Position numbers and translations under genes: made by a program
From: Myxococcales bacterium
GTDB lineage: Bacteria; Myxococcota_A; Polyangia; Haliangiales; Haliangiaceae
DNA: 64,000 nt
Reading direction: 5' to 3'
Assembly: GCA_016708565.1 (NCBI GenBank)
Contig: JADJFN010000001.1
Location: forward strand, 412,863-476,862
The notes under the pieces: model-generated
The model's input: only the letters and a program-made list of their open reading frames with translations
Databases searched by the model: none
What the model was told of the DNA's origin: nothing
In this document: positions 4,582 to 56,750 of the stretch, piece after piece
Position numbering within the stretch: the first letter of the stretch is position 1
Layout of the letters: each line of letters starts with the position of its first letter

Positions 4582-6197
<1,616 letters not shown>

Positions 6198-10518: not shown

Positions 10519-10562
10519 CCCTCCCGTTCGACGCTCCGGGCCGTTTCGGGAGGGGGCCCCGG
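10519..10562. repeat. GC-rich hairpin element between convergent TPR and STK genes (terminator-like; shares a 32-mer with 15298-15329)
   Basis: CCCTCCCG...CGGGAGGG 8-bp stem. acgctccgggccgtttcgggagggggccccgg. Confidence 0.55.
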
Positions 10563-10566
10563 CCTC

Positions 10567-15278: not shown

Positions 15279-15297
15279 CGATCAACCTGCCGTGCCC

Positions 15298-15364
15298 ACG
15301 CTCCGGGCCGTTTTGGGAGGGGGCCCCGGCGAATGCCGGGGGAGGGTCTTTGCGAAAGACCCTC
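15298..15364. repeat. Composite GC-rich palindromic element downstream of clpX
   Basis: acgctccgggccgttttgggagggggccccgg (31/32 identical to 10531-10562), then hairpins ccccggc-gaat-gccgggg and gagggtcttt-gcg-aaagaccctc. Confidence 0.6.
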
Positions 15365-15376
15365 GTCTCAATACGC

Positions 15377-16585
<1,209 letters not shown>

Positions 16586-21812: not shown

Positions 21813-21865
21813 CCGCAAGCGGAGCCGGAGCCGTGGCCGCGGATCCGTGGCCGCTCTTGTGGGGG

Positions 21866-21888
21866 AGGGGCTTTGCGAAAGCCTCTCT
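21866..21888. terminator. Hairpin gaggggcttt-gcg-aaagcctctc between convergent L,D-transpeptidase and crp genes
   Basis: 10-bp stem (one G-U pair), 3-nt loop, abuts the Crp stop. No U-tract. Confidence 0.5.
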
Positions 21889-22578
21889 CTAGAACAGCGC
21901 GCGCAGCGCCGTCAGGTCCGACAGGATCACCTTGCGGCCATCGGTGACGATCAGCCGGCGCCGCTTGAACTGCGACAGCGTCAGCGACACGGTCTCGCGG
22001 GTCGAGCCGATCAGGTTGGCCAGCTCCTGGTGGGTGATCTTCATCGCCACCAGCTTGCCGCGGACGTCGTCGACGCCGTACTCGTCGGCCAGCTTGATCA
22101 GCTGCTCGGCCAGCTTGGCCGACACGTCGCGGAACACCAGCGCCTCGAGCTTGTTCTCGAGATCGTGACGGCGGGCGATGACCGCGCGTGCCACCGCGAT
22201 GGCGAGCGGCGCGCTGGTCGTGAGGATGCGCTCGAAGTCGCCCTTGTCGACCTCGGCCAAGAGCGCGTTCTCGACGGCCTCGGCCATCTCGGTGCGCGCG
22301 GCGATGCCGACCAGGCAGGTCTCGCCGAACATGTCGCCGGGCCCGCAGTAGCCGAGCGTCAGCGACTTGCCGTCGCGCGTCACCTTGCAGATCTTCAAGC
22401 GCCCGCCGCACACGAAGTACAGCGAGCGGCTGGGGTCACCTGGCAGATACACCACGTCCCGCCGCCGGACCTCCCGCAGCTCGACCTTCTCGGACAGCCG
22501 CGCCAGCACGTCGGGACCGGCCTCGGCCAGGACCGCTACCTTCTTCAGGTACCAAAGCGTCCGCTTGGGGTCGGTCAC
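21889..22578 (-). CDS. Crp/Fnr-family transcriptional regulator
   Basis: cNMP-binding beta-roll (GDMFGE) and C-terminal HTH (ITHQELANLIGSTRETVSLTL). GTG start at about 22578 overlaps the stop of the CPBP gene. Confidence 0.85.
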   Translation of the reverse strand: MTDPKRTLWYLKKVAVLAEAGPDVLARLSEKVELREVRRRDVVYLPGDPSRSLYFVCGGRLKICKVTRDGKSLTLGYCGPGDMFGETCLVGIAARTEMAEAVENALLAEVDKGDFERILTTSAPLAIAVARAVIARRHDLENKLEALVFRDVSAKLAEQLIKLADEYGVDDVRGKLVAMKITHQELANLIGSTRETVSLTLSQFKRRRLIVTDGRKVILSDLTALRALF

Positions 22579-24017: not shown

Positions 24018-26048
24018 TCAGGGCGTGCCGGCGCCGTTGGCCCAGTCGGGCGTCGGGCCGGTGCTGCCGCTGCCGGGCGACGCGGTGCCCGATCCCGAGC
24101 CGGTCGGCGGCTTGGCCGAGCCCGATCCGGAACCCGATCCCGAGCCGGTCGGCGGCTTGGCCGAGCCCGATCCGGAACCCGATCCCGAGCCGGTCGGCGG
24201 CTTGGCCGAGCCCGAACCCGAGGCGGATCCGGAACCAGAGCCGGAGTCGGAACCGGATCCGGAGCCGCCGGCGGCGGAGCCGGAACCGGAACCGGAGCCA
24301 GCGGCGGAGCCGGAGTCGGACCCTGATCCCGAGCCGGCACCGGCGTCGGAGCCCGAGCCGCTGCCGGTCGCGCTGCCGCTGCCGGTGCCCGTCTTGGCGA
24401 GATCCATCGTGGCGTCGGTGGTCGCGGCGAGTTGATCGCCCTCGGCGGCGAACTGGTCCGGCTTGATGACCGTGCTCCACGGCTGGTAGCCGCGCTTGCG
24501 CAGGTAGACCCGCACGCCGCCGGCCTTGGCCGCCTGGGCCTTGGTCAGCGTCACGTCGGCCGGCGTCACCTTGCCGGTCTCGGCACCGTCGACCGCGATC
24601 GTCGCGCCGGCCGGCGTCGACGTCACGTGGATCATCCGCGGCAGCCCCTCGAGCTTCGCGGTCGCGGTCTTGTCGCCGCCGTTGACCTTGAGCTCGGCGT
24701 CCTGGAAGCCCGGGGCGCTCACCTTGATCGTGAACGGCTTGCCGACCTCGAGGTCGACGGTGAACGGCGCCGGCCCACTGGCGCCGGTCTCGACGACGGT
24801 CACGGTGGCCCCAGCGACGGCGGCCTTGACCACCAGCGGCGCGGTGACCGCCGGGGCGGCGGCCGCGTCGATCGCGACCTCGGCGGTGACGGCAGCGTCG
24901 GGGGCCAACGGGGCCATCGCGTCGATCGCGGCGACCGCGACCTGGGTGCCGGTGGCGGTGCCCGAGGCGGTCGGCGGCGTCGGCGCCTCGTTCTTCTTCT
25001 CGGCCTTGCCGCGCAGCACGAAGAACCACACGGCGGCGGCCACCAGCGCGGCCGCGAGCAGGCCGATGATCACGGCCGAGGCGCCCTTGCTGGACGTCCC
25101 GGGGATCGCGGTCGGCTCGGCGGGCGCGGCCGTCGCGGTGGCGGCGGGGCGGGCGGCGGCGGTCTTGGCGGCGGCCGCGGTCTTGGCGGCGGCGATCGCC
25201 GGCTCATCGACGAGGCGCGGGGCCGGGCTCGGCGCGGGGGCCGGCGCTGGCGTGGGCGCGGGCGGCGCCTCGGGCACCGGCACCGCGCGCACCACCGGCG
25301 CGGTGGTGTCCGCCGGCGACGGCTCCGCCGGCGGGGGCGGGGTGGGCGCGGCGAGCTTCTTCTCCGACGCGCGCGCGGCCTTGGCCTCGGCGCGGGCCTC
25401 GGCGGCCGCCTCGCCGGCGGCGGTGGCGGCGACCAGGTCGTCGAGCGCGCGCACCTTGGTCGCTTCCTCGAAGGTCTCCTCGGGGAACTCGTCGGCGTCG
25501 CTGTGGAACGGCATCGGCCGCGGCAGCGGCGTGGTGTCGGTGCGCTCGTCGGCGAACCCCGACTTCGACGGCGCCATCTGGCCCAGCTTGGGCTTGGCGA
25601 CCTCGGCGGCCGCGGCGGCCAGGGGAGACGGCGCGACCCGCGTCGGCGCGTCCATGAAGTTCTTGTTGGGCGGCGGCTCGGTGTTGCCCGACGACGTCGA
25701 TGGCTGCTTGGCCTTCTCGGCGAGGATGCGATCGAGGATCGGCTGGCTGCCGTCGCCCAGCCGGTCGAAGCGCACGCCCATGCCGGGCGCGGCGTTGGGG
25801 CGGGCCGGATCGTTCTCGCGGGTCCAGACGACGGTGCCGTCGCCGGTGATCAGCGGCGTCGCGTCGCGGAGCTGGAACTCGAACCGCATCTGGGTGCCGA
25901 CGGCCAGCGGCTCCTTGGTCCGGATGAAGATGCCGCCGGGGCTCACGTCGGCGGCGTAGCGCTCGATGAACTGATCCAGGGTCGCGCTCTTGAACTTGAT
26001 CTTGAGCGTGACCGGCGCGCGCTTGGCTTGACGGGTGTTGGGATCCAC
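24018..26048 (-). CDS. PilZ (c-di-GMP-binding) domain protein with disordered linker, TM helix, periplasmic PEGA-like domains and Gly/Ser-rich tandem-repeat tail
   Basis: N-terminus RQAKR (RxxxR) and DVSPGGIF (DxSxGG) are canonical PilZ motifs. About 200 aa Ala/Pro/Glu-rich linker, [27 protein letters not shown]-like segments ([21 protein letters not shown]), then a C-terminal (GS)n-AKPPTG x3 tail. Confidence 0.85.
24091..24225. repeat. Tandem 45-bp direct repeat x3 inside the PilZ-PEGA gene (encodes [15 protein letters not shown] units)
   Basis: Unit gatcccgagccggtcggcggcttggccgagcccgatccggaaccc is repeated perfectly twice with a third diverged copy. Confidence 0.8.
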
Positions 26049-29809: not shown

Positions 29810-29881
29810 GTCCGAATCTCGGACAAAATGGCCGGATTCGTCCGGCGTTCCGGCCATCCCCGGACAGCCACGGCTGTCCGG
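29810..29881. promoter_or_regulatory. Cluster of three inverted repeats with TCCGGAC/GTCCGGA cores upstream of the HNH gene
   Basis: gtccga-atc-tcggac (29810-24), atggccgga-N12-tccggccat (29828-57) and ccggacagcc-ac-ggctgtccgg (29860-81, 10-bp perfect arms). Confidence 0.5.
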
Positions 29882-29954: not shown

Positions 29955-30884
29955 CTACTTGCGCGCGACGAAGTCGATCGACGTGATCGCCAGCTGCTCG
30001 CGGGTGTACTTCGCGAACTCGGGGTGCACCTTGATCTTGTCGAGCTGCGCCAGCCGCTCGGGCTTGGCCCGCGAGGTGTCGAGCGCGATCGTGAACCCAG
30101 CGGCCTTGGCCAGGTCGGTGAAGTCGGGCGCGCGCAGCCGGTTCTGGTACAGGAACCGGTTCTGCCACTTGGCCCAGCGCGCCGACGAGTACGACAGGTA
30201 GTGCAGCTGGTTGATGGCGTCGTCGCCGTAGGCGTAGTGATCGCCGCAGTTGACGCCGTGGATCATCACGCCCCCCGCGGGCAAGAGCCGGCGCGCCTCG
30301 GCGAAGATCGCCGCGATCACCGGCCCCGGCACGTGCTCGAGCACGCTGTTGGAGAAGACGACGTCGATCGACCCGTCGGCCAGCGAGGTCGCGCTGGCGT
30401 CGGCCGGCGCGTGGTACTCGACCACGCCGTCGGTGGCGGCGGTGACGTCGGCGCCGCTGGCCAGCGCCCGCGCCACCTTGGCCAGCCGGTGCTCGACGTC
30501 GCCGGCGCCGACGCCAGCGGTCGACGCCAGCACCTCGATGTGGGCCGGGCGGGCCAGCACCTCGACGCACTGCCGGGTCAGCTCGGGCCGCAGGTAGCGG
30601 TTGAGATCGACCGTCACGATCTTCGCCGCGCCCGCCGCGTACAGCGCGAACGGGAACAGCGTGTACCAGCCGGTGCCGATCTCGAGCATCCGTGCGCCCG
30701 GCACCTTGGCGCCGCACCGCGCGAGCATGTCGACCATCACCCGCCAGTCGTCGACCTTGATCGTCATCTCGCGGGTGACGTCGCGCAAGCCGCCGGCCTT
30801 GCGCTGTAGCTGGTAGTGCAGGTCGTCGCCCCGGGGGACCACCCCGAGGACCTTCTGGATCGCGCCCTTGATGCGCCAGTGCAT
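29955..30884 (-). CDS. Class I SAM-dependent methyltransferase
   Basis: Motif I MLEIGTGWY and a Rossmann-like pattern. No DNA-methyltransferase motifs seen. Confidence 0.8.
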   Translation of the reverse strand: MHWRIKGAIQKVLGVVPRGDDLHYQLQRKAGGLRDVTREMTIKVDDWRVMVDMLARCGAKVPGARMLEIGTGWYTLFPFALYAAGAAKIVTVDLNRYLRPELTRQCVEVLARPAHIEVLASTAGVGAGDVEHRLAKVARALASGADVTAATDGVVEYHAPADASATSLADGSIDVVFSNSVLEHVPGPVIAAIFAEARRLLPAGGVMIHGVNCGDHYAYGDDAINQLHYLSYSSARWAKWQNRFLYQNRLRAPDFTDLAKAAGFTIALDTSRAKPERLAQLDKIKVHPEFAKYTREQLAITSIDFVARK

Positions 30885-33172: not shown

Positions 33173-34873
<1,701 letters not shown>

Positions 34874-34877
34874 ACTC

Positions 34878-34948
34878 CCTGGAAGGGGCTTTCGCAAAGC
34901 CCCTTCCCCGTCGGGGGCATGCCCCGACGGGGCCCCAACCCGAACCGC
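34878..34948. repeat. Double-hairpin palindromic element downstream of pyrG
   Basis: ggaaggggcttt-cgc-aaagccccttcc (12-bp stem), ccccgtcgggg-gcatg-ccccgacgggg (11-bp stem), then ccccaacccgaaccgcgagagc. Confidence 0.6.
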
Positions 34949-34967
34949 GAGAGCCCACAGCCCCGCC

Positions 34968-36073: not shown

Positions 36074-37591
36074 ATGGGCATGGAGATGCGCCAAGAGCTG
36101 CGACTGAGTCAGCAGCTCGTCATGACGCCTCAGCTCCAGCAGGCGATCAAGCTGCTTCAGCTGTCCCGCATGGAGCTCGTGGACATGGTCCACGAGGAGA
36201 TGCTCGAGAACCCGATCCTCGAAGACGACTTCGAGGTCTCAGCCGAGCAGGGCAAGGAGCGAGAGCTCCTGGGCGGCGACGACCAGCTCGCGATGCAGAT
36301 GGAGCGAGCCGGCAACACCGAGCTACCCCCGCTCGAGCAGACGCCGGTCGAGAACGCCAACCAGGTCGAGGTCAAGGCCGACGGCACCGCGGTCAACGAG
36401 ATCGACTGGGAGAACTACCTCGACAACTACTCGAGCGCCTCGCCGATGCCGTCGTACCGCGGCGACAGCGAGGACCTGCCGTCGCTCGAGGCCACGCTCA
36501 CCCGGCCGCCGTCGCTCCACGACCACCTGGCCTGGCAGCTCAAGCTGTCGGACCTCGAGGATCGCGAGAAGGAGCTGGGGCTCATCATCATCGGCAACAT
36601 CGACGCCGATGGCTACTTCAAGGAGCCGACGGTCAGCGAGCTGGCCGCCGACGAGGGTGTCAGCGAGGAGCTGGTCGAGAAGGTGCTGGAGAAGATCCAG
36701 ACCTTCGATCCGGTCGGCATCGGCGCGCGCAACCTCGCCGAGTGCATGCTGATCCAGGCCATCGCGTGCGGCCAGGACGACGACCTCGTCGTCAAGATGA
36801 TCAAGAGCCACCTCAACAACCTGGTGAAGAAGAACTACGCGGCGATCGTGCGCGATCTGAAGAAGCCGCCGCCGGCGCCGCAGATGGACATCGAGGAGAT
36901 CTACGAGGCGGCCAAGGTCATCATGGAGTTCGACCCGCGCCCGGGTCGGCAGTACGCCTCCGACGATCCGCACTACATCACCCCCGACGTCTACATCCAC
37001 AAGGTCGGCGACAAGTTCTTCGTCGTGCCCAACGACGACGGCCTGCCCAAGCTGAAGATCGCCAACTTCTACAAGGCGGCGATGGGCTCGGGGGAGAAGT
37101 CCAAGGAGTACGTCCAGGACAAGATGCGGTCGGCGCAGTGGCTGATCCGCTCGATCCAGCAGCGCCAGCGCACGATCATCAAGGTCGCCGAGTCGATCCT
37201 GAAGTTCCAGCGCGAGTTCTTCGACAAGGGCATCGCCCACCTGAAGCCGCTGATCCTGCGCGACATCGCCGAGGACATCGGCATGCACGAGTCGACGGTG
37301 TCGCGCGTGACGACCAACAAGTACGTCCACACGCCGCAGGGCATCTACGAGCTGAAGTTCTTCTTCAACTCGGGCATCTCGTCGTCGTCGGGCGACGACC
37401 TCGCCTCGCAGGCGGTCAAGTCCAAGATCAAGGAGCTGGTCGACGCCGAGGACGCCAAGCGCCCGCACAGCGACCAGAAGATCGTCGAGCTGCTCAAGAA
37501 GGGCGGCATCAACATCGCCCGCCGCACCGTCGCCAAGTACCGCGAGCAGATGGGCATCCTGTCGTCGAGCCAGCGCAAGCAGGTGTTCTGA
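36074..37591 (+). CDS. rpoN: RNA polymerase sigma-54 factor
   Basis: MGMEMRQELRLSQQLVMTPQLQQAIKLLQLS, a core-binding region, HTH, and the RpoN box ARRTVAKYRE. Confidence 0.95.
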   Translation: MGMEMRQELRLSQQLVMTPQLQQAIKLLQLSRMELVDMVHEEMLENPILEDDFEVSAEQGKERELLGGDDQLAMQMERAGNTELPPLEQTPVENANQVEVKADGTAVNEIDWENYLDNYSSASPMPSYRGDSEDLPSLEATLTRPPSLHDHLAWQLKLSDLEDREKELGLIIIGNIDADGYFKEPTVSELAADEGVSEELVEKVLEKIQTFDPVGIGARNLAECMLIQAIACGQDDDLVVKMIKSHLNNLVKKNYAAIVRDLKKPPPAPQMDIEEIYEAAKVIMEFDPRPGRQYASDDPHYITPDVYIHKVGDKFFVVPNDDGLPKLKIANFYKAAMGSGEKSKEYVQDKMRSAQWLIRSIQQRQRTIIKVAESILKFQREFFDKGIAHLKPLILRDIAEDIGMHESTVSRVTTNKYVHTPQGIYELKFFFNSGISSSSGDDLASQAVKSKIKELVDAEDAKRPHSDQKIVELLKKGGINIARRTVAKYREQMGILSSSQRKQVF

Positions 37592-37657
37592 CAGCCGCCC
37601 GCCATTCGCCGTCGCTGGTGTGCGAGGCCGTCGGGATGCCGCCGGTCCGGTCGCGGG

Positions 37658-38389
37658 TCAGAAGCCGGAGAAGGCGCGGAGGCGGGCGGCGTCGGGGGTG
37701 GTGCGGCCGGCGGCGTCGCGCAGCACGAGCTCGTCGGTGGCGAGCGGCGCGGCGGCGTGGGCCAGGGTCCAGACGGCGAACAGCGGCGGCTTGGGGGCGT
37801 GGGCCACGATCGCGGTGCGGGCGACGACGTGCAGGCCGACCTCGGCGGCGGCGGCCTGCAGCCGGCCCTCGGTGCGCGCGTCGCCGCACAAGACCAGCGC
37901 GCCGCCGGGCGCCAGCGCCGCCGCGCCGGCCACGACGTAGGCGTCGATGCCGCCGCGGTACTCGATGCGCGCGTAGGCCCGCTGCTCGTCCTGGGCGTCG
38001 ACCGCGGCGTCCGGGGGGAAGTACGGCGGCGTGCCGGTGACCAGATCGAACAGGCCGACCCGCAGCTCGCGCAGATCGCCGTGGTGGATCGCGACCCGCG
38101 CGCCGAGCTGGTTGCGCCGGACGTTCTCGGTCAGGAGCGCGAACGACACCGCCTGGGCCTCGATGCCGACCAGCGTCGCCGCCGGCAGGCTCCACGCCAG
38201 GTGCAGCAGCACCGAGCCGATGCCGCAGCCGAGGTCGAGGATCCGCCGCGCGTCGGGCGCGCGCCGGCACGCCACGTACGCGGTGGCCATGTCGTCGCTC
38301 GAGAACCGGTGGCCGCGGGCGCGCTGGACGATCGTCAGGTCGCGGGTGAGCCGGTCCTCGGTCAGCGGGCCCCAGCGCGGGTCGAGCAT
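37658..38389 (-). CDS. SAM-dependent methyltransferase, MTS/small-domain type (TrmN6/RsmC/HemK-like, motif IV GTPPYF)
   Basis: ILDLGCGIGSVLL (motif I) and DLVTGTPPYF (motif IV). Lies antisense between rpoN and hpf. Start is ATG near 38389 (ORF GTG at 38536 is the alternative). Confidence 0.7.
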   Translation of the reverse strand: MLDPRWGPLTEDRLTRDLTIVQRARGHRFSSDDMATAYVACRRAPDARRILDLGCGIGSVLLHLAWSLPAATLVGIEAQAVSFALLTENVRRNQLGARVAIHHGDLRELRVGLFDLVTGTPPYFPPDAAVDAQDEQRAYARIEYRGGIDAYVVAGAAALAPGGALVLCGDARTEGRLQAAAAEVGLHVVARTAIVAHAPKPPLFAVWTLAHAAAPLATDELVLRDAAGRTTPDAARLRAFSGF

Positions 38390-38556
38390 GCGCGCGTGTA
38401 CCAGATCGCGGCGCGCCGTGGCGCGGCCGGCGGCGAGATCGTAGCTCCGGCGCGCGCGTGAGGGAAGGGCGGCGGGAGGCAACCGTCGGGCGGCGCGCGT
38501 GGCGTCGAAGAGTCGACGAAGAACGTGTTGTCGCACTTCCGCGATGCTGTCGCAGC

Positions 38557-38575
38557 GTTACACTTGTCGTGTAAC
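38557..38575. promoter_or_regulatory. Perfect 7-bp inverted repeat GTTACAC-N5-GTGTAAC 19 bp upstream of hpf
   Basis: gttacacttgtcgtgtaac, operator-like, followed by GGAGG and the ATG at 38594. Confidence 0.45.
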
Positions 38576-38593
38576 AACGGCTTCGGAGGCCAA

Positions 38594-39175
<582 letters not shown>

Positions 39176-39189
39176 CGGGATCGGTAGGC

Positions 39190-39216
39190 CCGCCGGGGAG
39201 GGCCCCCGGCGCCCGA
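39190..39216. terminator. Hairpin cgccgggg-aggg-ccccggcg downstream of hpf
   Basis: 8-bp GC stem resembling the gggagggggccccgg motif of the other elements. Confidence 0.45.
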
Positions 39217-39279
39217 TCACGGGGGTAGCGGACCGTTGGGGTTGCTGGGTGACCGTGATAGGGTGGCCGCCACCGAGCC

Positions 39280-39740
39280 ATGAAGATCGTCGATCTGATC
39301 GGGCGCGACATGATCGTGCCGGCGCTGGCCGGGACGGACAAGCGGTCCATTCTCGAAGAGCTGGCCGCCCACGTCGCGCGCCAGCACCCCCGCATCGATC
39401 GCGCCACCCTCACCCGTGTGCTGGTCGATCGCGAGGCCCTGGCCTCGACGGCGATCGGCGAGGGCGTCGCGATCCCCCACGGCAAGCTCAGCGCGGTGAC
39501 GGAGATCGTCGCCTGCCTGGGCCGGGCGCGCGCCGGCGTCGACTTCGACGCGATGGACAAGCAGTCCACCTACCTGTTCTTCGTCCTGGTGGCGCCCGAG
39601 TCGTCGACCGGCGCCCACCTGAAGGCCCTGGCCCGGATCAGCCGCGTGTTCAAGGACGGCAGCTTCCGCAAGCGTCTGCTCGAGGCGCCCGACGCCGACG
39701 GCATGTTCGCGGTGATCGCCGAGGAAGACGCCAAGTACTG

Positions 39741-39741
<1 letters not shown>
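39280..39741 (+). CDS. ptsN: PTS IIA-like nitrogen regulatory protein (EIIA-Ntr)
   Basis: EIIA(Fru/Ntr) fold with active-site His context GVAIPHGK. Confidence 0.9.
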
Positions 39742-40709
<968 letters not shown>

Positions 40710-40712
40710 GCC

Positions 40713-41552
40713 ATGCAGATCGTCGTCGTCACCGGGCTGTCGGGGGCGGGCAAGTCCAGCGCGCTGCGCGCGCTCGAGGACATCGAGTATTACTGCGTCG
40801 ACAACCTGCCGCTGCCGTTCATGACCGAGCTGGTCGAGGCGCTGGCCCGCGACGGCCAGGCCGACAAGCTGGCGGTGGCGATCGACTCGCGGCAGCGCCG
40901 CTACCTGCCGACGTGGGGCGCCGAGCTGGCCAAGCTGCGCGGCGCCGGCCACCGCCTCGAGGTGATGTTCCTCGACGCCAAGGACGACGTGCTCTTGCGC
41001 CGGTTCTCCGAGACCCGGCGCCGCCACCCGCTGTCGGGCGACGAGGTGTCCGAGGGCATCCGCCGCGATCGCGAGCTGCTCGCCGAGCTGCGGATCGGCG
41101 CCGCGGTGGTCGACACGTCGAACCTGACGACCCACCAGTTCAAGGCGATCATCCAGGACCGCTACGGCGGCACCGGCAAGCTGGCGGTGACGCTGGTCTC
41201 GTTCGGGTGGAAGCACGGCGCGCCGGTCGAGTTCAACCTGGTGTTCGACGTCCGGTTCCTGCCCAACCCGTACTTCGAGCCGACCTTGACCCACAAGGAC
41301 GGCCGCGACCCCGACGTCGCGCGGTTCGTGTGCGCCTCGGCCGACGGCCTCGAGCTGGTCGAGCGGGTCGAGAGCCTGCTGCGGTTCTCGCTGCCGCAGT
41401 TCCAGCAAGAGGGCAAGCTGTACGTGACCGTGGCGGTGGGCTGCACGGGTGGCCGGCATCGCTCGGTCGCCATCGTCGAAGAGCTGCGCCGGCGGCTCGG
41501 CGGCGACTGGGACATCCTGGTCCGGCATCGCGACGTTGATCGAGGGGAGTGA
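40713..41552 (+). CDS. rapZ: RNase adapter protein RapZ (YhbJ)
   Basis: MQIVVVTGLSGAGKSSALRALEDIEYYCVDNLP. Confidence 0.9.
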   Translation: MQIVVVTGLSGAGKSSALRALEDIEYYCVDNLPLPFMTELVEALARDGQADKLAVAIDSRQRRYLPTWGAELAKLRGAGHRLEVMFLDAKDDVLLRRFSETRRRHPLSGDEVSEGIRRDRELLAELRIGAAVVDTSNLTTHQFKAIIQDRYGGTGKLAVTLVSFGWKHGAPVEFNLVFDVRFLPNPYFEPTLTHKDGRDPDVARFVCASADGLELVERVESLLRFSLPQFQQEGKLYVTVAVGCTGGRHRSVAIVEELRRRLGGDWDILVRHRDVDRGE

Positions 41553-41833
41553 CGATGTCCGAGATTGCACAGCAGGCGATCGTGATCAGCAACGAGCTGG
41601 GGCTGCACGCGCGCGCCGCCACCAAGTTCGTGCAGCTGGCGGGCAAGTACCCGTGCGACGTCGTCGTCGGCAAGGACGGCCACGACGTCAACGGCAAGAG
41701 CATCATGGGCGTGCTCATGCTGGTGGCGTCGAAGGGGACGACGATCGTGATCAGCGCCAAGGGGCCGCAGGCCGCCGACGCGGTCGCGGCGCTGGTCAAG
41801 CTGGTCCAGGACAAGTTCGGCGAGGAGCGCTAG
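41549..41833 (+). CDS. ptsH: Phosphocarrier protein HPr
   Basis: LGLHARAATKFV (His15 region) and KSIMGVLML (Ser46 region). GTG start overlaps the rapZ stop; ATG at 41555 is an alternative. Confidence 0.9.
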   Translation: MTMSEIAQQAIVISNELGLHARAATKFVQLAGKYPCDVVVGKDGHDVNGKSIMGVLMLVASKGTTIVISAKGPQAADAVAALVKLVQDKFGEER

Positions 41834-41836
41834 CCG

Positions 41837-43642
41837 GTGTCCGAGCGCGACCGCGAGCACGCCGGCGAGCGCCCCACCGGCGAGATCCGCCGGGACGGCG
41901 TCGCGGTCTCGGCCGGCATCGCGATCGGGCGCGCGTTCCTGGTCGGCCGCGATCTGATCAAGGAGCCGCGCTATCACGTCGAGGCCGACGACGTCGACAG
42001 CGAGGTCGCGCGCCTGCGCAAGGCGATCGCGTCGTCCGACAAGCAGCTGGCCAAGATCAAGAGCAAGCTGGCCGAGGAGGAGGCGTCGAGCGACTTCCAC
42101 ATCATCACCGCCCACCAGCTGATGCTCCACGACGAGCACCTGGTCGACGCGACGATCGGGTACATCAAGGACGAGCTGATCAACGCCGAGTGGGCGCTGA
42201 CCAAGGCGGTCGGCGACATCCGCGGCGTGTTCGACGCGATCGAGGACGACTACTTCCGCGAGCGCCGCAGCGACGTCGACTTCGTCGGCGAGCGCGTGCT
42301 GCGCAACCTGCTGGGCAAGGAGACCGGGCCGCTCAAGCCGCCGCCCGACGCGATCGTCGTCGCCTACGACCTGTCGCCGGCCGACACCGCGCAGCTGCAC
42401 AAGCACGCGGTGGCGGGCCTGATCACCGACGCCGGCGGCAAGACCTCGCACACCGCGATCATCGCCCGCGCCCACGAGCTGCCGGCGGTGGTCGGCCTCG
42501 AGGACATCACCGAGCTGGTGCTCGACGACGACCTGCTGATCGTCGACGGCGGCGCCGGCGTGGTGATCGTCAACCCGACGCCGACGACGGTCGGGCAGTA
42601 CCGCGATCAGCAGCGCAAGCAGGTGGCGCTCGAGGAGCAGCTGCTCGGCAACAAGGACCTGCCGGCCACGACCAAGGATGGCGTGGCGGTGCAGCTCTAC
42701 GCCAACATCGACGGCCCCGACGAGATCGACGGCGCGCTCGAGCACGGCGCGGTCGGCATCGGCCTGTACCGCACCGAGTACCTGTTCATGGTGGGCGACC
42801 ACGTCCCCGACGAGGAGACCCACTACAAGACCGCGGTCGAGGTGCTCGAGCGGATGGCCGGCCGGCCGGTGACGATGCGCACCTTCGATCTGGGCGCCGA
42901 CAAGCTGGCCAAGTTCCTCGAGGAGGCCGCCCTCGACGAGGCCAACCCGGCGCTGGGGCTGCGCTCGATCCGGCTGTGCCTGGCCGACCTGGGGCAGGGG
43001 CTGTTCCGCACCCAGCTGCGCGGCCTGTTGCGCGCCAGCGCCCACGGGCCGCTGCGGATCATGTTCCCGATGATCTCGGGGGTCGCCGAGCTGCGCGCGG
43101 CGATGGCGGTGCTCGACGACGTCAAGCGCGAGCTGCGGGCGTCGAAGGTGCCCTTCGACGAGCACATCAAGATCGGCATCATGATCGAGATGCCGGCGGC
43201 GGCGGTGATCGCCGACCTGCTGGCCAAGGAGACCGCGTTCTTCTCGATCGGCACCAACGACCTCATCCAGTACACGATGGCGGTCGATCGCGTGAACGAG
43301 CTGGTGTCGTACCTGTACGAGCCGCTGCACCCGGCGCTGTTGCGGCTGGTGCGCGACACGGCGATCGCCGCCCACGCGGCGGGGATCCCGGTCAGCCTGT
43401 GCGGCGAGATGGCGGCCGACCCGCTGGTGGCGCCGGTGCTGCTCGGCCTGGGGATCACCGAGCTGTCGATGAGCGCGGTGTCGATCCCCGAGGTCAAGGG
43501 GCTGGTGCGCGCGAGCACGATGAGCGAGCTGCAGGCGCTGGTGGCGCGGGTGGTGTCGCTGCCGACGGCGGAGGAGATCCGGGCGGCGGTGACGGCGTAC
43601 ATGGCCAGCGTGACGGCGGCGGCGGCCGCGGCGGGGAAGTAG
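41837..43642 (+). CDS. ptsI: Phosphoenolpyruvate-protein phosphotransferase (PTS enzyme I)
   Basis: GGKTSHTAIIARA (phospho-His), a PEP-utilising domain, and CGEMA. Confidence 0.9.
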   Translation: MSERDREHAGERPTGEIRRDGVAVSAGIAIGRAFLVGRDLIKEPRYHVEADDVDSEVARLRKAIASSDKQLAKIKSKLAEEEASSDFHIITAHQLMLHDEHLVDATIGYIKDELINAEWALTKAVGDIRGVFDAIEDDYFRERRSDVDFVGERVLRNLLGKETGPLKPPPDAIVVAYDLSPADTAQLHKHAVAGLITDAGGKTSHTAIIARAHELPAVVGLEDITELVLDDDLLIVDGGAGVVIVNPTPTTVGQYRDQQRKQVALEEQLLGNKDLPATTKDGVAVQLYANIDGPDEIDGALEHGAVGIGLYRTEYLFMVGDHVPDEETHYKTAVEVLERMAGRPVTMRTFDLGADKLAKFLEEAALDEANPALGLRSIRLCLADLGQGLFRTQLRGLLRASAHGPLRIMFPMISGVAELRAAMAVLDDVKRELRASKVPFDEHIKIGIMIEMPAAAVIADLLAKETAFFSIGTNDLIQYTMAVDRVNELVSYLYEPLHPALLRLVRDTAIAAHAAGIPVSLCGEMAADPLVAPVLLGLGITELSMSAVSIPEVKGLVRASTMSELQALVARVVSLPTAEEIRAAVTAYMASVTAAAAAAGK

Positions 43643-45930: not shown

Positions 45931-46839
45931 TCACGGCATCCGCGCCGGCCCGGGGCCGGGGCGGGGGGGGGGCGCGGGCGCGGTCAGCGTGGCCTGGCTC
46001 CAGGCGCCGCCGCGCTGCAGCCACACCGCGCCGCTGGCCAGCGGCAGGAACACCGTGCCGTCGGCGTGGACGGCCAGCGCCAGCGGGCGATCGTCGTCGG
46101 CGACCGCCGGCGCGGCGACCTCCTGCCACGCGCCCCGGACCCGGCGCGCCAGGATCGGCCCGGCGGCGCGCCGCGCGAACACCCACGCGGCGCCGTCGGG
46201 CGCGGTGGTGGCGGCCAGCGGGGTCAGGCGCTCGCCGCCCAGCACCACCGGCGCGGCGGCCTTGGCCGCGACGTCGAACAGCGCGCCGTCGGCGGCGATC
46301 GCCAGCGGCGCGGCCCCGCTGGCGAACCGGGTGACGCTGGCGGTGGCGTGATCGACGAGGCGCTTGCCGGCCAGGCGCCAGAGGCGATCGGCGCCGGCGA
46401 CGTAGACCTTGCTGTCGCTGCCGGCCCACAGCGCGACGATCCCGGCCGGCGCCGCGCCGACGCGGACCCACGCCTTGGCCTTCCATACGAACACGTTGCG
46501 GCCGATCGCGAACGCCGGGTGCGGGCCACCGCCCATCACGGTCTTGCCGCGCTCGCCGAGCCGCAGCGCCTGCCATCCGTCGGGATCGAGGCGGTAGGCC
46601 GGCGTGGCCTTGCCGACCACCACCAGCTGCGCCGCGACCACCGCGCCGCCGACGTCGGCGGCGACGCCGCCACCCGCGTCGCGGGTCCAGGCGCCGTGGC
46701 CGTCAGGCTGCCACACCTGCCCCGAGGGGCCGACCAGCGTCGAGGCCAGCGGATCGGGCGCCAGCGCGACCGCGGCCAGCGGCTCGGCGGTCGCCGCGCC
46801 AGCGCTCGCCAGCACCAGGGCGGCGAGGAGGCGCTTCAC
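45931..46839 (-). CDS. Secreted hypothetical protein
   Basis: Signal peptide MKRLLAALVLASAGAATA. Gly/Ala/Trp-rich beta-type composition. High GC3. Confidence 0.6.
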   Translation of the reverse strand: MKRLLAALVLASAGAATAEPLAAVALAPDPLASTLVGPSGQVWQPDGHGAWTRDAGGGVAADVGGAVVAAQLVVVGKATPAYRLDPDGWQALRLGERGKTVMGGGPHPAFAIGRNVFVWKAKAWVRVGAAPAGIVALWAGSDSKVYVAGADRLWRLAGKRLVDHATASVTRFASGAAPLAIAADGALFDVAAKAAAPVVLGGERLTPLAATTAPDGAAWVFARRAAGPILARRVRGAWQEVAAPAVADDDRPLALAVHADGTVFLPLASGAVWLQRGGAWSQATLTAPAPPPRPGPGPARMP

Positions 46840-47540
46840 GGCGTCGCGGGCGCGGGCGCGACGGGCGCCGGAGTGGGCGCGGCGGGGGCCGGCGCGGCGG
46901 GCTTCGGCGCGGGCGGGGCGGGAGTGGGTGCGGCGGGCTTTGGCGCGGGCGCGGCGGGTGCGGTCGGCGCGGTGGCCTTGCCGCCGCCCGTGCCCTTGCC
47001 GGTGCCGTCGCCCTTGCCGGTGCCATCGCCCTTGCCGCCGCCGGTGCCATCGCCCTTGCCGGTGCCGTCGCCCTTGCCGCCGCCGGGGGCGGTGGCCGCG
47101 CTGGCGTCGACGGTGGGCGGGGTCGCGGCCGCGCCGCCGTCACCGGCCACGCCGCCGTCGTCGGCCAGCGCCGCGGCGTCGACCGGCACCGCCGCGTCGA
47201 CCGGGGGCGGTGGCGGCGTCTGCATGGCCTTCAGCTCCTGCTCGATCGCCTCGATCTCCTCGAGCTGCTTGCCCTTGAGCAGGCCGCAGGTCTTGAGCTG
47301 ATCGAGCGAGCGCGCCTCCATGGCGCACTTGACCGACGCCTTCTTGGCGGCGCCGCGGCACGAGCGGATCCACGCCGCGTCGGTGGCCGACTCGACGCTC
47401 ATCTTCGACGTGCCCATCAGCGTGCGGATGTTGGTGATCGCCTGCTTGCAGTCGGACTCCGACGGCTTGTCGCAACCGGCGACCATCGACACGCCCAGGA
47501 CCAGCGACAGGCACCACGAGACAGGGAGCTTCATGACCAT
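46836..47540 (-). CDS. Lipoprotein with Cys-rich N-domain, KGDGTG tandem repeats and Pro/Ala-rich tail
   Basis: MVMKLPVSWCLSLVLGVSMVAGC lipobox. Six more Cys. GKGDGTGKGDGTGGGKGDGTGKGDGTGKGTGGGK repeats. AGGAA lies 5 nt before the ATG, and the start overlaps the last 10 nt of the upstream gene. Confidence 0.75.
   Translation of the reverse strand: MVMKLPVSWCLSLVLGVSMVAGCDKPSESDCKQAITNIRTLMGTSKMSVESATDAAWIRSCRGAAKKASVKCAMEARSLDQLKTCGLLKGKQLEEIEAIEQELKAMQTPPPPPVDAAVPVDAAALADDGGVAGDGGAAATPPTVDASAATAPGGGKGDGTGKGDGTGGGKGDGTGKGDGTGKGTGGGKATAPTAPAAPAPKPAAPTPAPPAPKPAAPAPAAPTPAPVAPAPATP
46990..47090. repeat. 18-bp tandem repeats (cccttgccggtgccgtcg)n encoding KGDGTG units
   Basis: At least 5 consecutive units with minor variation. 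Confidence 0.7.
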
Positions 47541-49203: not shown

Positions 49204-50454
49204 TCAGAAGCTGCAGAGGGGCACCGGGCCGCACAGCCGGCTGTTGGGATCGCAGAAGCCGGCGGTGCACTGGTCGTCGCTGTTGCAGGCCGCGCCGTCG
49301 CCGAGCGGCCCCTCGCAGGCGCCGGTCGCGGCGCCGCTGACCTCGTTGGAGCAGTGCAGGCCGGTCGAGCACGAGTTGGGGTCGCTGGCGAAGACGCCGT
49401 CGCTCGAGCGCGTGCAGGTCGCGCCCACCGCGCCGGCCGGCTGGCAGGTGCCGCCATCGCAAGCCAGCGTGGCGCCGCACCAGGCCTGGCCCTGGGCGGT
49501 GCCGCACGGCGCGCCGACGGTCAGCGACGGCGTGCAGGTGCCGGGGCTGCCGCTGGGGCCGGCGCAGTACTGGTGGCCGAAGCAGCCGAAGATGCCGTCG
49601 CAGCTCGCGCCGGCGGCGCGCACGTCGCGGCAGATGCCGGTGGTGGTCGAGGTGTCGCCGACGCACAGGAGCTCGCCGAGACACTCGAGATCGTCGCTGC
49701 AGATCGAGCCGGCGGGCTTGCTCGTGGTGCAGGTGCCGGTGGCGGTGCTGTCGTTGTGGCCGCCGTTGCAGAACAGCCCCGGGTCGCAGTCGTTGCCGCC
49801 GTCGCACGGCCGGCCGGCCGCGCCCGACTCGCACAGCGAGATGTCCATGTTGGTGGCGGTGTCGCGCTTGGACACGCAGTAGTCGGCGGGGCCGCAGAAG
49901 CCGCCGTTGGCGCACGACTGGCCGGTGGCCGCGGGCTTCCGGCACACCTTGCTGCCGCAGGCCTGGCCGCCCGACGGCGACTCGCAGCGGGCGCCGGCGG
50001 TGGCGCACTCGAAGTCGGCCTGGCACGCCGCGCCGTCGTTGACGTTGCCGACGATGGCGCCGCACTCGGCCAGCAGGTCGCCGCCGCTCTTCATCAGCTC
50101 GCAGGTGCCGGTGATCCGCGCGACGCAGCTGGCGGCGGCGGTGGGGTTCCACTGGGCGCGGCCGCGGGCGACGCTGTCGTCGAGCATGCGCCGGGCCGCC
50201 ACCTGGGTCAGGTCGTTGAACAGGAACAGCGGCAGGTGATCGCAGTCGAGGTGCGTGGTCGAGCTGCCGAAACAGTCGTCGATCAGGCTGCACGCGGCGC
50301 GGCTGAAGCAGACGAAGAACTCGTCGACGGTGAGCGAGCTCGCGGCGCAGCCGTCGGCGGCGCTGTCGATGCCGGCGTCCTCGACGGCGGGCGGCACCTC
50401 GCCGCAAGCGGTGACCAGGGGGACGGCGACGAGCAGGGCGGCCACGATGCGCAT
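49204..50454 (-). CDS. Cysteine-rich-repeat secreted lipoprotein (myxobacterial Cys-rich repeat type)
   Basis: MRIVAALLVAVPLVTACGE lipobox. About 50 Cys in repeated C-x-G/C-x3-C modules. Confidence 0.75.
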   Translation of the reverse strand: MRIVAALLVAVPLVTACGEVPPAVEDAGIDSAADGCAASSLTVDEFFVCFSRAACSLIDDCFGSSTTHLDCDHLPLFLFNDLTQVAARRMLDDSVARGRAQWNPTAAASCVARITGTCELMKSGGDLLAECGAIVGNVNDGAACQADFECATAGARCESPSGGQACGSKVCRKPAATGQSCANGGFCGPADYCVSKRDTATNMDISLCESGAAGRPCDGGNDCDPGLFCNGGHNDSTATGTCTTSKPAGSICSDDLECLGELLCVGDTSTTTGICRDVRAAGASCDGIFGCFGHQYCAGPSGSPGTCTPSLTVGAPCGTAQGQAWCGATLACDGGTCQPAGAVGATCTRSSDGVFASDPNSCSTGLHCSNEVSGAATGACEGPLGDGAACNSDDQCTAGFCDPNSRLCGPVPLCSF

Positions 50455-51397
50455 CCCCACATTGTCGCGGGTCGCTCGGCCAGGCTCAAGGGGCACCGGC
50501 GGGCGCGCGACCGAGATCACGGCGGCGATCCGCGCTACCCTCGCCGCGGTGCCGCCGCGCTTCACCTGGCATGACGTGGCCGCCTGGTTCCCGGTGCGGG
50601 TGCTGCGCCACAGCCGGCGCGACGACGCGCCGGTGCTGGCCGCGGGCGTCGCGATGTACCTGCTGCTGGGGCTGTTGCCCACGCTGGCGGCGGTGGTGTC
50701 GATCTACGCGCTGATCGCCGACCCGACGCAGATCGAGGGCCACCTCGCCGGCCTGGATCGGGTCGTGCCCGACGACGTCTACCGCCTGCTGGTCGATCAG
50801 CTGCAGCGCGCCAGCCACCGCTCCGACGACGAGCTGCGCCTGACCCTGGCCGGCGCGGTCGTGCTGGCGCTGTGGTCGAGCCGCGCCTCGGCCAACGCGC
50901 TCCTGGTCGGCATCGAGCGCATCGACGGCACCCGCAGCCGGTGGCGCGGCTGGCGGCGGCTGGTGCTGACGACCCTGCTCGCGCTGGGCGCGCTGTTCTC
51001 GGCGGTGACGCTGCTCGCGGTGGTGGTGGCCATGCCGGCGACCAGCGCGACGCTCGCGCCGGGGCTGCGCAGCTGGCTGGTGGCGCTGCGCTGGCCGGCG
51101 CTGATCCTCACCGGCGTGACCGGGCTGTCGGTGCTGTACGCGCTGGGCGGGCCGCCGCGGCCCAAGCGGCAGATCATCCCCGGCGCGCTGGTCGCGACCG
51201 CGCTGGGCTTGCTCGCGTCGCTGGGCGTCTCGTACTACGTGGCCGATCTGGCCAGCTACCAGTCGCTGTACGGCACGTTCGGCAGCGCGATGGTGGTGGT
51301 GCTGTGGTTCTACGCCTGCTCGCTGGCGGTGATGATCGGCGCGGTCGTCAACACCGAGCTGCGCGTGCCGAGCGACCCGTCGTGGTCGCGGTACTGA
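50447..51397 (+). CDS. YihY/BrkB (virulence factor BrkB) family membrane protein
   Basis: YihY-like TM pattern (AAGVAMYLLLGLLPTLAAV...). Start uncertain: ATG 50447 overlaps the divergent gene start (palindrome ATGCGCAT); alternative GTG about 50549. Confidence 0.7.
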   Translation: MRIPTLSRVARPGSRGTGGRATEITAAIRATLAAVPPRFTWHDVAAWFPVRVLRHSRRDDAPVLAAGVAMYLLLGLLPTLAAVVSIYALIADPTQIEGHLAGLDRVVPDDVYRLLVDQLQRASHRSDDELRLTLAGAVVLALWSSRASANALLVGIERIDGTRSRWRGWRRLVLTTLLALGALFSAVTLLAVVVAMPATSATLAPGLRSWLVALRWPALILTGVTGLSVLYALGGPPRPKRQIIPGALVATALGLLASLGVSYYVADLASYQSLYGTFGSAMVVVLWFYACSLAVMIGAVVNTELRVPSDPSWSRY

Positions 51398-51540
51398 ATT
51401 TCAGGAGGGCGTGTCGCCACGCCCTCCCCCGTCGGGTCATGCCCCGACGGGGCCCCCTCCCAAGACGCGAAACGCCTGGCGCATGGGTCGGTGCTCGGCC
51501 GAAATACTCACAAGCTCTGAGTTTCAGGAGGTGCGTCGCT
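51398..51540. repeat. Palindromic element downstream of yihY-like gene, flanked by 23-nt imperfect direct repeats
   Basis: ctgaatttcaggagggcgtgtcgc (51394-51417) and ctgagtttcaggaggtgcgtcgc (51516-51539). Inside: ggagggcgtg-tcgc-cacgccctcc, ccccgtcggg-tcatg-ccccgacgggg, then ccccctcccaagacgcgaaac. Confidence 0.55.
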
Positions 51541-56078: not shown

Positions 56079-56624
56079 ATGTCCGAGACCAAGCCCTCCC
56101 TGCTCCTGTGCGACGACGACGAGGTCTTCCGCACCCGCACCGCCCGCGCCTTCACCGAGCGCGGCTTCGAGGTGTCGACGGCCCACGACTTCGACAGCGC
56201 GGTCGCGGTGGCGCGCGGCGAGTCGCCCGAGCTCGCGGTGGTCGACCTCAAGATGCCCGGCAAGGGTGGCCTCGAGCTGGTCAAGGCGCTGCTCGAGATC
56301 GATCCCCACACCAAGATCGTCGTCCTGACCGGCTACGGCTCGATCGCGACCGCGGTCGACGCGGTCCGGCTGGGCGCGACCTACTACCTGGCCAAGCCGG
56401 CCGACGCCGACGAGATCCTCGCCGCGTTCGCCCGCGGCCAGGCGCCGCCGCTCGAGCCGCCCGACTCCGACTACCGCGCGCCGAGCCTGGCCCGCGCCGA
56501 GTGGGAGCACATCAACCGCGTGCTGTCGGACTGCGGCGGCAACATCTCCGAGGCGGCGCGCCGGCTCGGCATCCACCGCCGGTCGCTGCAGCGCAAGCTG
56601 CAGAAGTACCCGCCGAATCGTTGA
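56079..56624 (+). CDS. regA: RegA/ActR/PrrA-type response regulator (REC + Fis-type HTH)
   Basis: LLLCDDDEV...VVDLKMPGKGG...LAKP receiver. C-terminal GGNISEAARRLGIHRRSLQRKL. Confidence 0.85.
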   Translation: MSETKPSLLLCDDDEVFRTRTARAFTERGFEVSTAHDFDSAVAVARGESPELAVVDLKMPGKGGLELVKALLEIDPHTKIVVLTGYGSIATAVDAVRLGATYYLAKPADADEILAAFARGQAPPLEPPDSDYRAPSLARAEWEHINRVLSDCGGNISEAARRLGIHRRSLQRKLQKYPPNR

Positions 56625-56750
56625 TTAGAGGGCCTGTCGCCAGGCCCAGGTGGAGGCAGGTGGGGCACCGGTTGCATGAACCACGGACGTGCGCGTGGGG
56701 ACGCCGGACGTCCCCGACGGGGCCCCACCCAAGACGCGAGACATCCAGCG
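56625..56750. repeat. Palindromic element downstream of regA sharing the CCCCGACGGGGCCCC-CCCAAGACGCGA motif
   Basis: ggcctg-tcgc-caggcc hairpin, ggggacg-ccgga-cgtcccc hairpin, then ccccgacggggccccacccaagacgcgagac (compare 51441-51470). Confidence 0.55.

Follow-up and report, generated by a model that had tools for sequence, protein, structure and literature searches.

What are the GC-rich palindromes that lie just past the stop codons of unrelated genes in a 64,000-nucleotide (nt) stretch of the myxobacterial contig JADJFN010000001.1, referred to below as the window (G+C content 74%)? The original prediction, made from this sequence, described three kinds of related module at seven or more intergenic sites, among them the site behind pyrG, and took them for a dispersed myxobacterial repeat family resembling repetitive extragenic palindromic (REP) elements. 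All the sequences that it quoted were recovered in place, and its gene names agreed with Pfam. We found the modules to be parts of one oriented composite. The explanation that we favour, with a probability of roughly 0.6, is a lineage-restricted, mobile and modular non-coding element of the messenger RNA (mRNA) 3' end, similar to REPs and to the TRIT motif of mycobacteria, that likely forms or protects transcript ends.

When the sites are read in the direction of the upstream gene, a single order emerges: stop codon, a first hairpin (HP1), a second hairpin (HP2) and a C-rich tail. HP1 has the feet GAGGG/CCCTC and a variable interior, and most copies have TCGC or TCGA at its loop; in the window every HP1, taken in gene orientation, has TCGC in or around its loop. 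HP2 has the feet CCCC/GGGG and varies in interior and length. The tail is CCCCCTCCCAARACG or a near variant (C-rich portion CCCCCUCCC; scheme C4-6, 1-2 nt, CCC, RA) and is predicted to be single-stranded; subfamily-specific 3' extensions and tandem unit repeats can come after it. Family alignments showed nearly invariant feet and tail, with loops and stem interiors free to vary, and GAGGG, CCCTCCCCC and GGGGCCCCCTCCC are the best-conserved parts of the element. The 3' flank is CCCCCUCCCAA, and no copy has a U-tract. The placement right after stop codons and the lack of U-tracts were both as predicted. The three modules are likewise real sequences, but they do not form separate families. The shared 32-mer at 10531-10562 and 15298-15329, which had been listed as a module of its own, is the reverse complement of the tail of the palindrome module, and the difference between GCG and CGC in the loop of the hairpin module is a strand effect only.

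A covariance model, R1, comprising nine HP1 pairs, seven HP2 pairs and the tail, was built from 21 gap-free copies (alignment A3). With filters off, R1 detected three full and three partial copies in the window, that is, six sites (Table 1). A seventh, the 'echo' of the 32-mer at 39194-39215 after hpf, was undetected by R1 and its fold was not significant; it was rejected as a family member, and we therefore count six sites rather than seven. The original prediction had missed the HP1s at 51404-51427 and 56630-56647. The predicted RNA folds of the three full copies had z-scores of -3.3 to -4.4 (element A, -42.0 kcal/mol, z=-3.3; element B, -40.6 kcal/mol, z=-4.4; element D, -30.4 kcal/mol, z=-3.6), and those of the partial copies were not significant (element F alone, z=-0.9). 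The 29-mer of the shared 32-mer occurs twice in the window against 0.00 expected occurrences, and the tail CCCAAGACGCGARAC twice against 0.59; CCCCGACGGGGCCCC has three exact occurrences, but 2.1 matches are expected at two or fewer mismatches, so this motif is weak alone. A generic repeat finder run over the whole window was swamped by GC-rich coding similarity.

Matches outside the window are the decisive support for a real family. The tail 19-mer GGGGCCCCCTCCCRARACG was used as query for a genome collection in which the source genome is not among the representatives. It was found in 76 stretches, concentrated in five myxobacterial metagenome-assembled genomes (MAGs), namely JAGPCY01 (roughly 45, many in tandem arrays), JADJGV01 (~13), JAEUJY01 (~11), JAWKQV01 and CAJBHN01, with singletons only elsewhere; none of the viral contigs contained it. 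Element B with its borders (window 51387-51539) matched 14 non-orthologous loci in the JADJGV and JAEUJY MAGs at 91-99% identity over 93-153 nt, which sets the length of this element at ~130 nt, and element D (window 15297-15368) matched eight loci at 95-100%, including some in three other MAGs. The covariance-model search that had been suggested as a check gave 108 R1 copies (E<1e-3) in 528 kb of selected loci, intergenic bar a few. The PyrG of the window was found in exact form only on metagenome contigs, which makes the source organism uncultured like the carriers; this PyrG is the same as that of 'Myxococcales bacterium' MAGs, and its neighbours are annotated as Kofleriaceae. The proposed myxobacterial repeat family is genuine and restricted to some Kofleriaceae-type MAGs. 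Between clades in which clpX is only 72% identical, the element core is still ~90% identical. The B-type consensus starts with CTGAGTTCC, which overlaps the host stop codon, and ends in ...ACAAGCGCTGAG; its 3' extension showed no supported structure and no compensatory pairs. In JAGPCY, direct repeats of the unit follow one another every 138-159 nt, and a complete HP1 is found only in the stop-proximal first unit. The window had no match in Rfam 15 at the gathering threshold, and permissive Rfam scans of element B and of a K-type array returned only EFASI, far below the cut-off. Full-text literature yielded no described myxobacterial REP-like or stop-codon-adjacent repeat.

Copies past unrelated genes are 91-100% identical over 63-150 nt, unpaired segments included. 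This already contradicts the view that each hairpin is an independent, gene-specific intrinsic terminator, I-shaped or other, that resembles the rest only through GC richness. Stable hairpins straight after stop codons and the scarcity of canonical terminators in this genome would agree with it, but close relatives lack the family at the orthologous sites and there is no U-tract, and we regard this view as barely credible. The element does share with a canonical intrinsic terminator a GC-rich hairpin shortly past the stop codon (folds of -30 to -42 kcal/mol) and a position at transcription-unit ends; unlike such a terminator it has two hairpins and no U-tract, and its copies are alike through common descent and come and go as whole units. 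Hairpins followed by a T-tract numbered 11 in the window, against ~8.9 expected from shuffled sequence, and only one of these was at a gene end; none of the element sites is among them.

The stems themselves bear marks of constraint. In the model-made alignment A4, 97.4% of cells are paired, compared with 85% after shuffling and 46-60% with slid partners; in 12 of the 16 stem pairs both partners have changed, as many as four pair types are seen at one position, and none of 500 shuffles attained the observed pairing and covariation values. These compensatory changes argue that the hairpins are under selection. They also bear on the suggestion that the function lies in a DNA structure. The mirror-repeat C-tracts (CCCTCCCCC ... 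CCCCCTCCC) amount to four template-strand G-tracts split by HP2, which might block RNA polymerase by adopting a G-quadruplex, i-motif or H-DNA structure or might serve as a protein-binding site. C-tracts and feet are indeed the most conserved parts, with free interiors, and their arrangement is polar relative to transcription. This suggestion is, however, read from the sequence alone; runs of G or C abound in DNA of 74% GC, the central loop of 14-26 nt is a long one, and selection acts on the hairpins as such. It seems to us highly improbable.

The position of the copies was then defined relative to genes, with arrays collapsed to 64 loci; most loci without a call lie too near the locus end for the test. 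At 55 of the 64, the stop codon of a co-oriented coding-like open reading frame (ORF) precedes HP1 at a distance of -2 to +42 nt, and 49 of those 55 fall between -2 and +14 nt (mode 7). Only five of the 64 have a gene on the opposite strand that ends within 60 nt of their 3' side. Judged by position and orientation, the copies are transcribed-strand specific. Both the location at gene 3' ends and the orientation relative to upstream genes, the latter put forward in the original prediction as a point to check, are evident from these 55 loci. At two loci (L054 and L024) oppositely oriented arrays face each other between convergent genes, within 1 kb. Since each of the convergent genes has its own, oppositely oriented array, orientation follows the gene and not replication; a replication-strand cause of the orientation was rejected on these facing arrays.

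The contexts of the copies are those of transcription-unit ends. In tandem gene contexts, 108 nt or more separate the element from the next start codon at 23 of 25 sites, whereas tandem gaps that hold no element have a median of 36.5 nt, and 76% of them measure less than 100 nt (Fisher p=1.6e-11 versus elements). Convergent contexts are enriched, making up 27 of 52 (52%) as against 36% of all gene ends (p=0.03). The elements sit at transcription-unit ends and avoid operon-internal junctions, as would be expected if they were polar on downstream genes. This avoidance suits the role at transcript ends that had been proposed, although in the form of a canonical intrinsic terminator that role is unlikely, as no copy has a U-tract.

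Comparison of close relatives showed that the copies turn over. At the pyrG site, neither a copy nor the core motifs were present in six syntenic pyrG-rpoN-hpf-pts loci (PyrG 83-88% identity, 122 kb), and the element is also absent in a relative with 92.6% PyrG identity. In a sister species, with PyrG 98.7% identical and the same downstream gene, the site is empty: a 26-nt spacer, TAG-CCGCGGGCCCGCGCCGCGAGCCCCCG-ATG, corresponds to a 94-nt gap in the window that element A fills, and the last two codons and the stop codon differ from the window too. By parsimony from these empty sites, element A is a recent gain. At the response-regulator site we compared ten contigs encoding the identical protein with flanks 91.5-99.8% identical to the window. 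The gap is only 4 nt long in L092; L094 has an intact form of element C; L086, L089 and L091 have the disrupted version, as in the window; L090 and L093 (97-98% identical to the window) have an A-type element, near-identical to A, and then the old tail; and L087 (4547-4700) and L088 (4547-4657) have an unrelated GC hairpin followed by GTGCCC hexamer repeats. Both convergent stop codons change with the gap variant. Element B was present in six of six same-species contigs that reach far enough past the gene.

For the clpX site, a metagenome collection was scanned for the conserved ClpX C-terminus. The same element was found at 99.8% identity. In a contig at 95.7% (L133), a complete unit that is new and differs in its HP2 adjoins the stop codon; the resident HP2 and tail have been shifted ~110 nt downstream, without the 5' arm of HP1. 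At 92.3% (L126) the interior of the HP1 stem is changed and the downstream flank is not. No copy is present at this site in the remaining 17 metagenome contigs from the scan, whose clpX 3' ends are 70-90% identical, and yet a distant JAGPCY MAG, with clpX 72% identical, has an element after clpX (L053). The distribution is patchy, with new units arising beside the stop codon and older ones decaying downstream, and gain, loss and replacement occur on the scale of strain and species divergence. Because of this turnover between close relatives, which the original prediction did not anticipate, the copies are better described as mobile or recombining than as conserved gene-specific terminators. 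A further arrangement was seen in L017 (1864-2000, JAGPCY010000008.1), in which a full element is followed by tandem short units of HP1 and tail without HP2 (GAGGGCCTGTCGCCAGGCCCTC-CCAAGACGCGAATCCACCACT, repeated); such units indicate that the modules can recombine independently.

The turnover raises the main rival to a function at the mRNA 3' end, a purely selfish, non-autonomous mobile DNA. Its short target would overlap stop codons (for example C-TGA-G), the polarity would reflect where insertions are tolerated, and the hairpins would be recognition structures for a single-stranded-DNA transposase or recombinase, as in IS200/IS605-type elements, PATEs and REP-RAYT systems. Patchy presence and absence with replacement at three sites fits this account, as do new units lying beside the stop codon, upstream of older truncated ones, and a core conserved far above coding DNA. 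C-TGA stands ahead of every one of the 14 B-type copies, with NNC as the last codon throughout (p ~6e-5 if C and G are equally likely), and the element end, with a second CTGAG or CTGAC, resembles a target duplication or paired cleavage sites. An insertion in the HP2 of L053, similar to a miniature inverted-repeat transposable element (MITE), parallels the insertion sequence (IS) elements that target REPs. The account meets difficulties in the details, however. There are no terminal inverted repeats, the B-type ends TTCCNGGAGGG... and ...ACAAGCGCTGAG not being complementary. The CTGAG-like pentamers that flank B-type copies on both sides agree in some copies (L023, CTGAC/CTGAC) and disagree in others (window, CTGAA/CTGAG; L033, CTGAT/CTGAG), and K- and D-type copies have no conserved leader and a stop spacing of -2 to +14 nt. 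CTGAG is common in genes and in other intergenic DNA, in both orientations, so that target choice alone does not predict the near-100% sense orientation; nor does this account predict the strong avoidance of short tandem junctions. No transposase was seen adjoining any copy, though no systematic search was made. We consider a purely selfish origin possible but unlikely.

Membership among REP/REPIN-RAYT systems would be a special form of mobility, in which classical REPs are mobilised by a REP-associated tyrosine transposase (RAYT). REPs are found in either orientation, typically paired as inverted copies and in many cases within operons, and a conserved tetranucleotide at the hairpin foot is recognised by the RAYT. 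They stabilise upstream mRNA against 3' exonucleases, vary between strains and are targets of other insertion sequences. The element shares with the REPs and BIMEs of enterobacteria and Pseudomonas its short GC-rich palindromic units, extragenic and present in many copies, in mosaic clusters and at times in arrays, its species-group specificity, its location in transcribed 3' or inter-cistronic regions and the insertion of another element into a hairpin. Unlike them, the copies are strictly co-oriented with the upstream gene, the arrays are direct tandem repeats, neither alternating nor inverted doublets, and operon-internal junctions are avoided. No GTAG-like tetranucleotide is conserved at the hairpin feet in the element alignments (feet GAGGG/CCCTC and CCCC/GGGG), and no RAYT gene was seen in the 8-kb blocks around the matches, where no systematic ORF search was made. 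The name REP-like therefore holds loosely, for multicopy extragenic palindromes, and fails on orientation, inverted doublets and a GTAG-type foot; a REP-RAYT identity proper is improbable.

The relation to the stop codon could also be more intimate. In an orientation-specific mobile 'gene-end cassette', the element would insert precisely at the stop, supply or reuse the stop through its C-TGA-G leader and displace the older copy downstream; gene polarity might be sensed via transcription or translation termination or via the single-stranded non-template strand. In the sole comparable empty site, the last two codons differed as well. If this were true, it would give the host a portable terminator that works without a U-tract. 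We hold it to be rather unlikely.

Integron attC sites offer a partial likeness, as folded, repeated and co-oriented sites directly 3' of an ORF that sometimes overlap the stop. The genes that the element follows, however, are scattered housekeeping genes (pyrG, clpX), with crp and others likewise spread over the contig, and not a cassette array beside an integrase, no single long imperfect hairpin is formed, and the attC cores RYYYAAC...GTTRRRY are absent from the element alignments. MITEs and Correia/ERIC-type repeats are similar in being dispersed, lineage-specific non-coding repeats of 60-150 nt with presence/absence polymorphism, and they can influence transcript ends. They differ from the element in that the latter is strictly oriented, adjoins stop codons and has neither terminal inverted repeats nor a clear target-site duplication.

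A function at the mRNA 3' end, combined with mobility, would account for both the polarity and the turnover. The element would be part of the mRNA 3' end, and its pair of hairpins would make or protect that end. By one route, the hairpins would block 3'-to-5' exonucleases after Rho-dependent or run-off termination; by another, they would pause RNA polymerase while the C-rich tail is offered to Rho or to a dedicated factor. In either case the element would be polar on downstream genes, and copies would then survive only at transcription-unit ends. Spread would be that of a non-autonomous mobile or recombining DNA, new units landing between the stop codon and an older unit, which would be left downstream without its HP1 5' arm. 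Mobility and an RNA role are compatible, the module being kept where its polar effect is harmless or useful. Lacking a U-tract, with CCCCCUCCCAA as the 3' flank, the element would not be a canonical intrinsic terminator.

The closest precedent, by analogy, appears to be TRIT, the 'Tuberculosis Rho-independent terminator' motif, described in Mycobacterium in 147 copies (Gardner et al., 2011; PMC3152330). It consists of one palindromic hairpin, mostly bidirectional and centred ~8 nt within the coding sequence, and its authors proposed a factor that reads the sequence-conserved motif (PMC3152330). As a behavioural analogy only, the element resembles TRIT in a high-GC host poor in canonical terminators, in its multiple copies with conserved sequence and structure, in its narrow distance to the stop codon, in being lineage-restricted and in lacking the classical hairpin with U-tract; in its behaviour it seems most like TRIT and REP/BIME. 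In contrast to TRIT, it is unidirectional, has two hairpins and a C-rich tail, starts past the stop (mode +7), forms tandem arrays and has another sequence. It is TRIT's description, and not the TRIT model, that sets the unidirectional, myxobacterial element apart.

Several points weigh against a function at the mRNA 3' end. It is only the position of the copies that points to 3'-end formation, stabilisation and polarity on downstream genes. Hairpins without U-tracts fail to stop the purified RNA polymerase of mycobacteria, even with NusA or NusG (PMC3993855), which makes direct termination doubtful. Element A ends only 17 nt before the next gene, which starts at 34968, at a junction that in the sister species is 26 nt long and operon-like; it would be either weakly polar or a recent, mildly harmful insertion. 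As the sister species does without an element at pyrG, no single copy is essential. The longer intergenic regions at which the copies are found may just give insertions more room, and the gene calls were based on a crude score of third-position GC (GC3). The alignment used for covariation was fitted to the model, and many of its copies are related by descent. Finally, G.U and A.C mismatches in the stems number 10 and 5, too few to tell folding of the sense RNA from folding of DNA; the form in which the stems are important could be either RNA or single-stranded DNA.

Canonical terminators are few in high-GC bacteria such as myxobacteria and actinobacteria. The family is a defined, repeated and strongly polar mark of transcription-unit ends in one lineage, and the filled and empty alleles of close relatives are natural controls for termination or stabilisation by hairpins without U-tracts, for a factor that would read the tail and for oriented spread. 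For the annotation of carrier MAGs, the covariance model marks gene ends together with their strand. From its sequence, the element would belong with the structured intergenic repeats at gene ends, among which its strict polarity, its adjacency to stop codons and the proximal insertion of new units would be unusual.

The six copies of the window and their genes are listed in Table 1. The gene map was made from third-position GC, and the names were then confirmed by Pfam. Element E consists of the HP2 3' arm, the tail and a D-type extension; its 29-mer is the same as that of element D bar one degenerate position, and the tail 19-mer matches as well.

Table 1. Copies of the element in the window and the genes that they follow, with coordinates on the window. 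R1 scores are from the run with filters off.
Feature	Position	Strand	Details
Element A (focal), full copy	34879-34950	+	9 nt past pyrG stop; R1 44.9 bits, E=1.5e-9
Element A HP1	34881-34907	+	GGAAGGGGCTTT-CGC-AAAGCCCCTTCC
Element A HP2	34908-34930	+	CCGTCGGGG-GCATG-CCCCGACGG
Element A tail	34931-34950	+	GGCCCCAACCCGAACCGCGA
Element B, full long-form copy	51393-51525	+	after brkB/yihY-like gene; R1 match 51401-51470, 45.1 bits
Element B leader		+	CTGAATTTCA; overlaps TGA stop of brkB/yihY-like gene
Element B HP1	51404-51427	+	GGAGGGCGTG-TCGC-CACGCCCTCC
Element B HP2	51428-51451	+	
Element B tail	51452-51470	+	
Element B 3' extension		+	GACGCGAAACGCCTGGCGCATGGGTCGGTGCTCGGCCGAAATACTCACAAGCTCTGAG; ends with second CTGAG
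Element D, full copy	15297-15368	-	12 nt past clpX stop; R1 89.8 bits (15306-15368)
Element D HP1	15342-15364	-	
Element D HP2	15324-15341	-	CCCCGGC-ATTC-GCCGGGG
Element D tail	15306-15323	-	extension GGCCCGGAGCGT reaches 15297
Element F, partial	21849-21891	-	R1 19.8 bits, E=0.003; HP1 and tail stub CCCCACAAGAGCG, no HP2
Element F HP1	21866-21888	-	one G.U pair; abuts TAG stop of crp-family gene
Element E, 5'-truncated	10531-10566	-	GAGG-CCGGGG-CCCCCTCCCGAAACGGCCCGGAGCGT; directly after Ser/Thr kinase TAG stop
Element E, R1 tail-only match	~10539-10562	-	cmsearch alignment 10539-10612
Element C, disrupted	56630-56745	+	after response-regulator gene; R1 12.0 bits for 56696-56739
Element C HP1 remnant	56630-56647	+	GGGCCTG-TCGC-CAGGCCC
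Element C degenerate hairpin	56702-56720	+	preceded by filler of ~60 nt
Element C tail	56722-56741	+	CCCCACCCAAGACGCGAGAC; shared 3' segment to about 56745
pyrG	33251-34873	+	Pfam
clpX	15377-16540	-	Pfam
crp-family regulator	21889-22578	-	Pfam
brkB/yihY-like gene	50255-51397	+	Pfam
Response regulator with Fis-type HTH	56079-56624	+	Pfam
hpf	38594-39175	+	Pfam
TPR protein / Ser/Thr kinase, convergent pair	meet at 10496/10567		
Ser/Thr kinase	10567-11880	-	

The cumulative GC skew of the window has its minimum at ~34-36 kb and rises steadily rightward, with three minus-strand copies to the left and three plus-strand copies to the right; this split is probably a consequence of gene orientation. 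The rpoN - hpf - ptsN(EIIA) - hprK - rapZ - HPr - ptsI cluster at 36074-43642 is syntenic in all Kofleriaceae relatives examined, and the slot between pyrG and rpoN is occupied by a different gene in each lineage. Only one of the canonical terminators at gene ends in the window is convincing: at 29825-29860 on the minus strand, two hairpins are followed by CCGGCCATTTT, downstream of a methyltransferase-like gene on the same strand (29955-30884). Two minus-strand ORFs (24018-26048 and 45931-47540) contain long, imperfect tandem repeats, at 24078-24383 and 46840-47100, whose periods range from 12 to 45 nt; they probably encode low-complexity Gly/Ser/Pro/Glu-rich protein linkers unrelated to the element. 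No tRNA or tmRNA gene was found in the window.

Loci in Actinomycetota and Solirubrobacterales MAGs (L006 4009-4082, L040 6502-6570 and L028 3590-3668) have the same 19-mer, GGGGCCCCCTCCCAAAACG, as an arm of a long near-perfect inverted repeat (...CGTTTTGGGAGGGG(G/A)CCCC). In L028 and L040, the 19-mer lies 27-28 nt past the end of a co-oriented ORF; the test gave no such ORF in L006. This inverted repeat is a different palindromic element, the motif being common to both by chance or convergence. The insertion within the HP2 of L053 (4557-4747, JAGPCY010000051.1) is ~190 nt long and has terminal inverted repeats of ~25 nt (GAGAGCAGCGAACGGCTTGCATGCC ... GGCATGCAAGCCGTTCGTTGCTCTAG). Its junction recurs in the next array unit, near 4875-4900, and this points to a transposable element with the hairpin as its target, in the way that certain IS elements insert into REPs.

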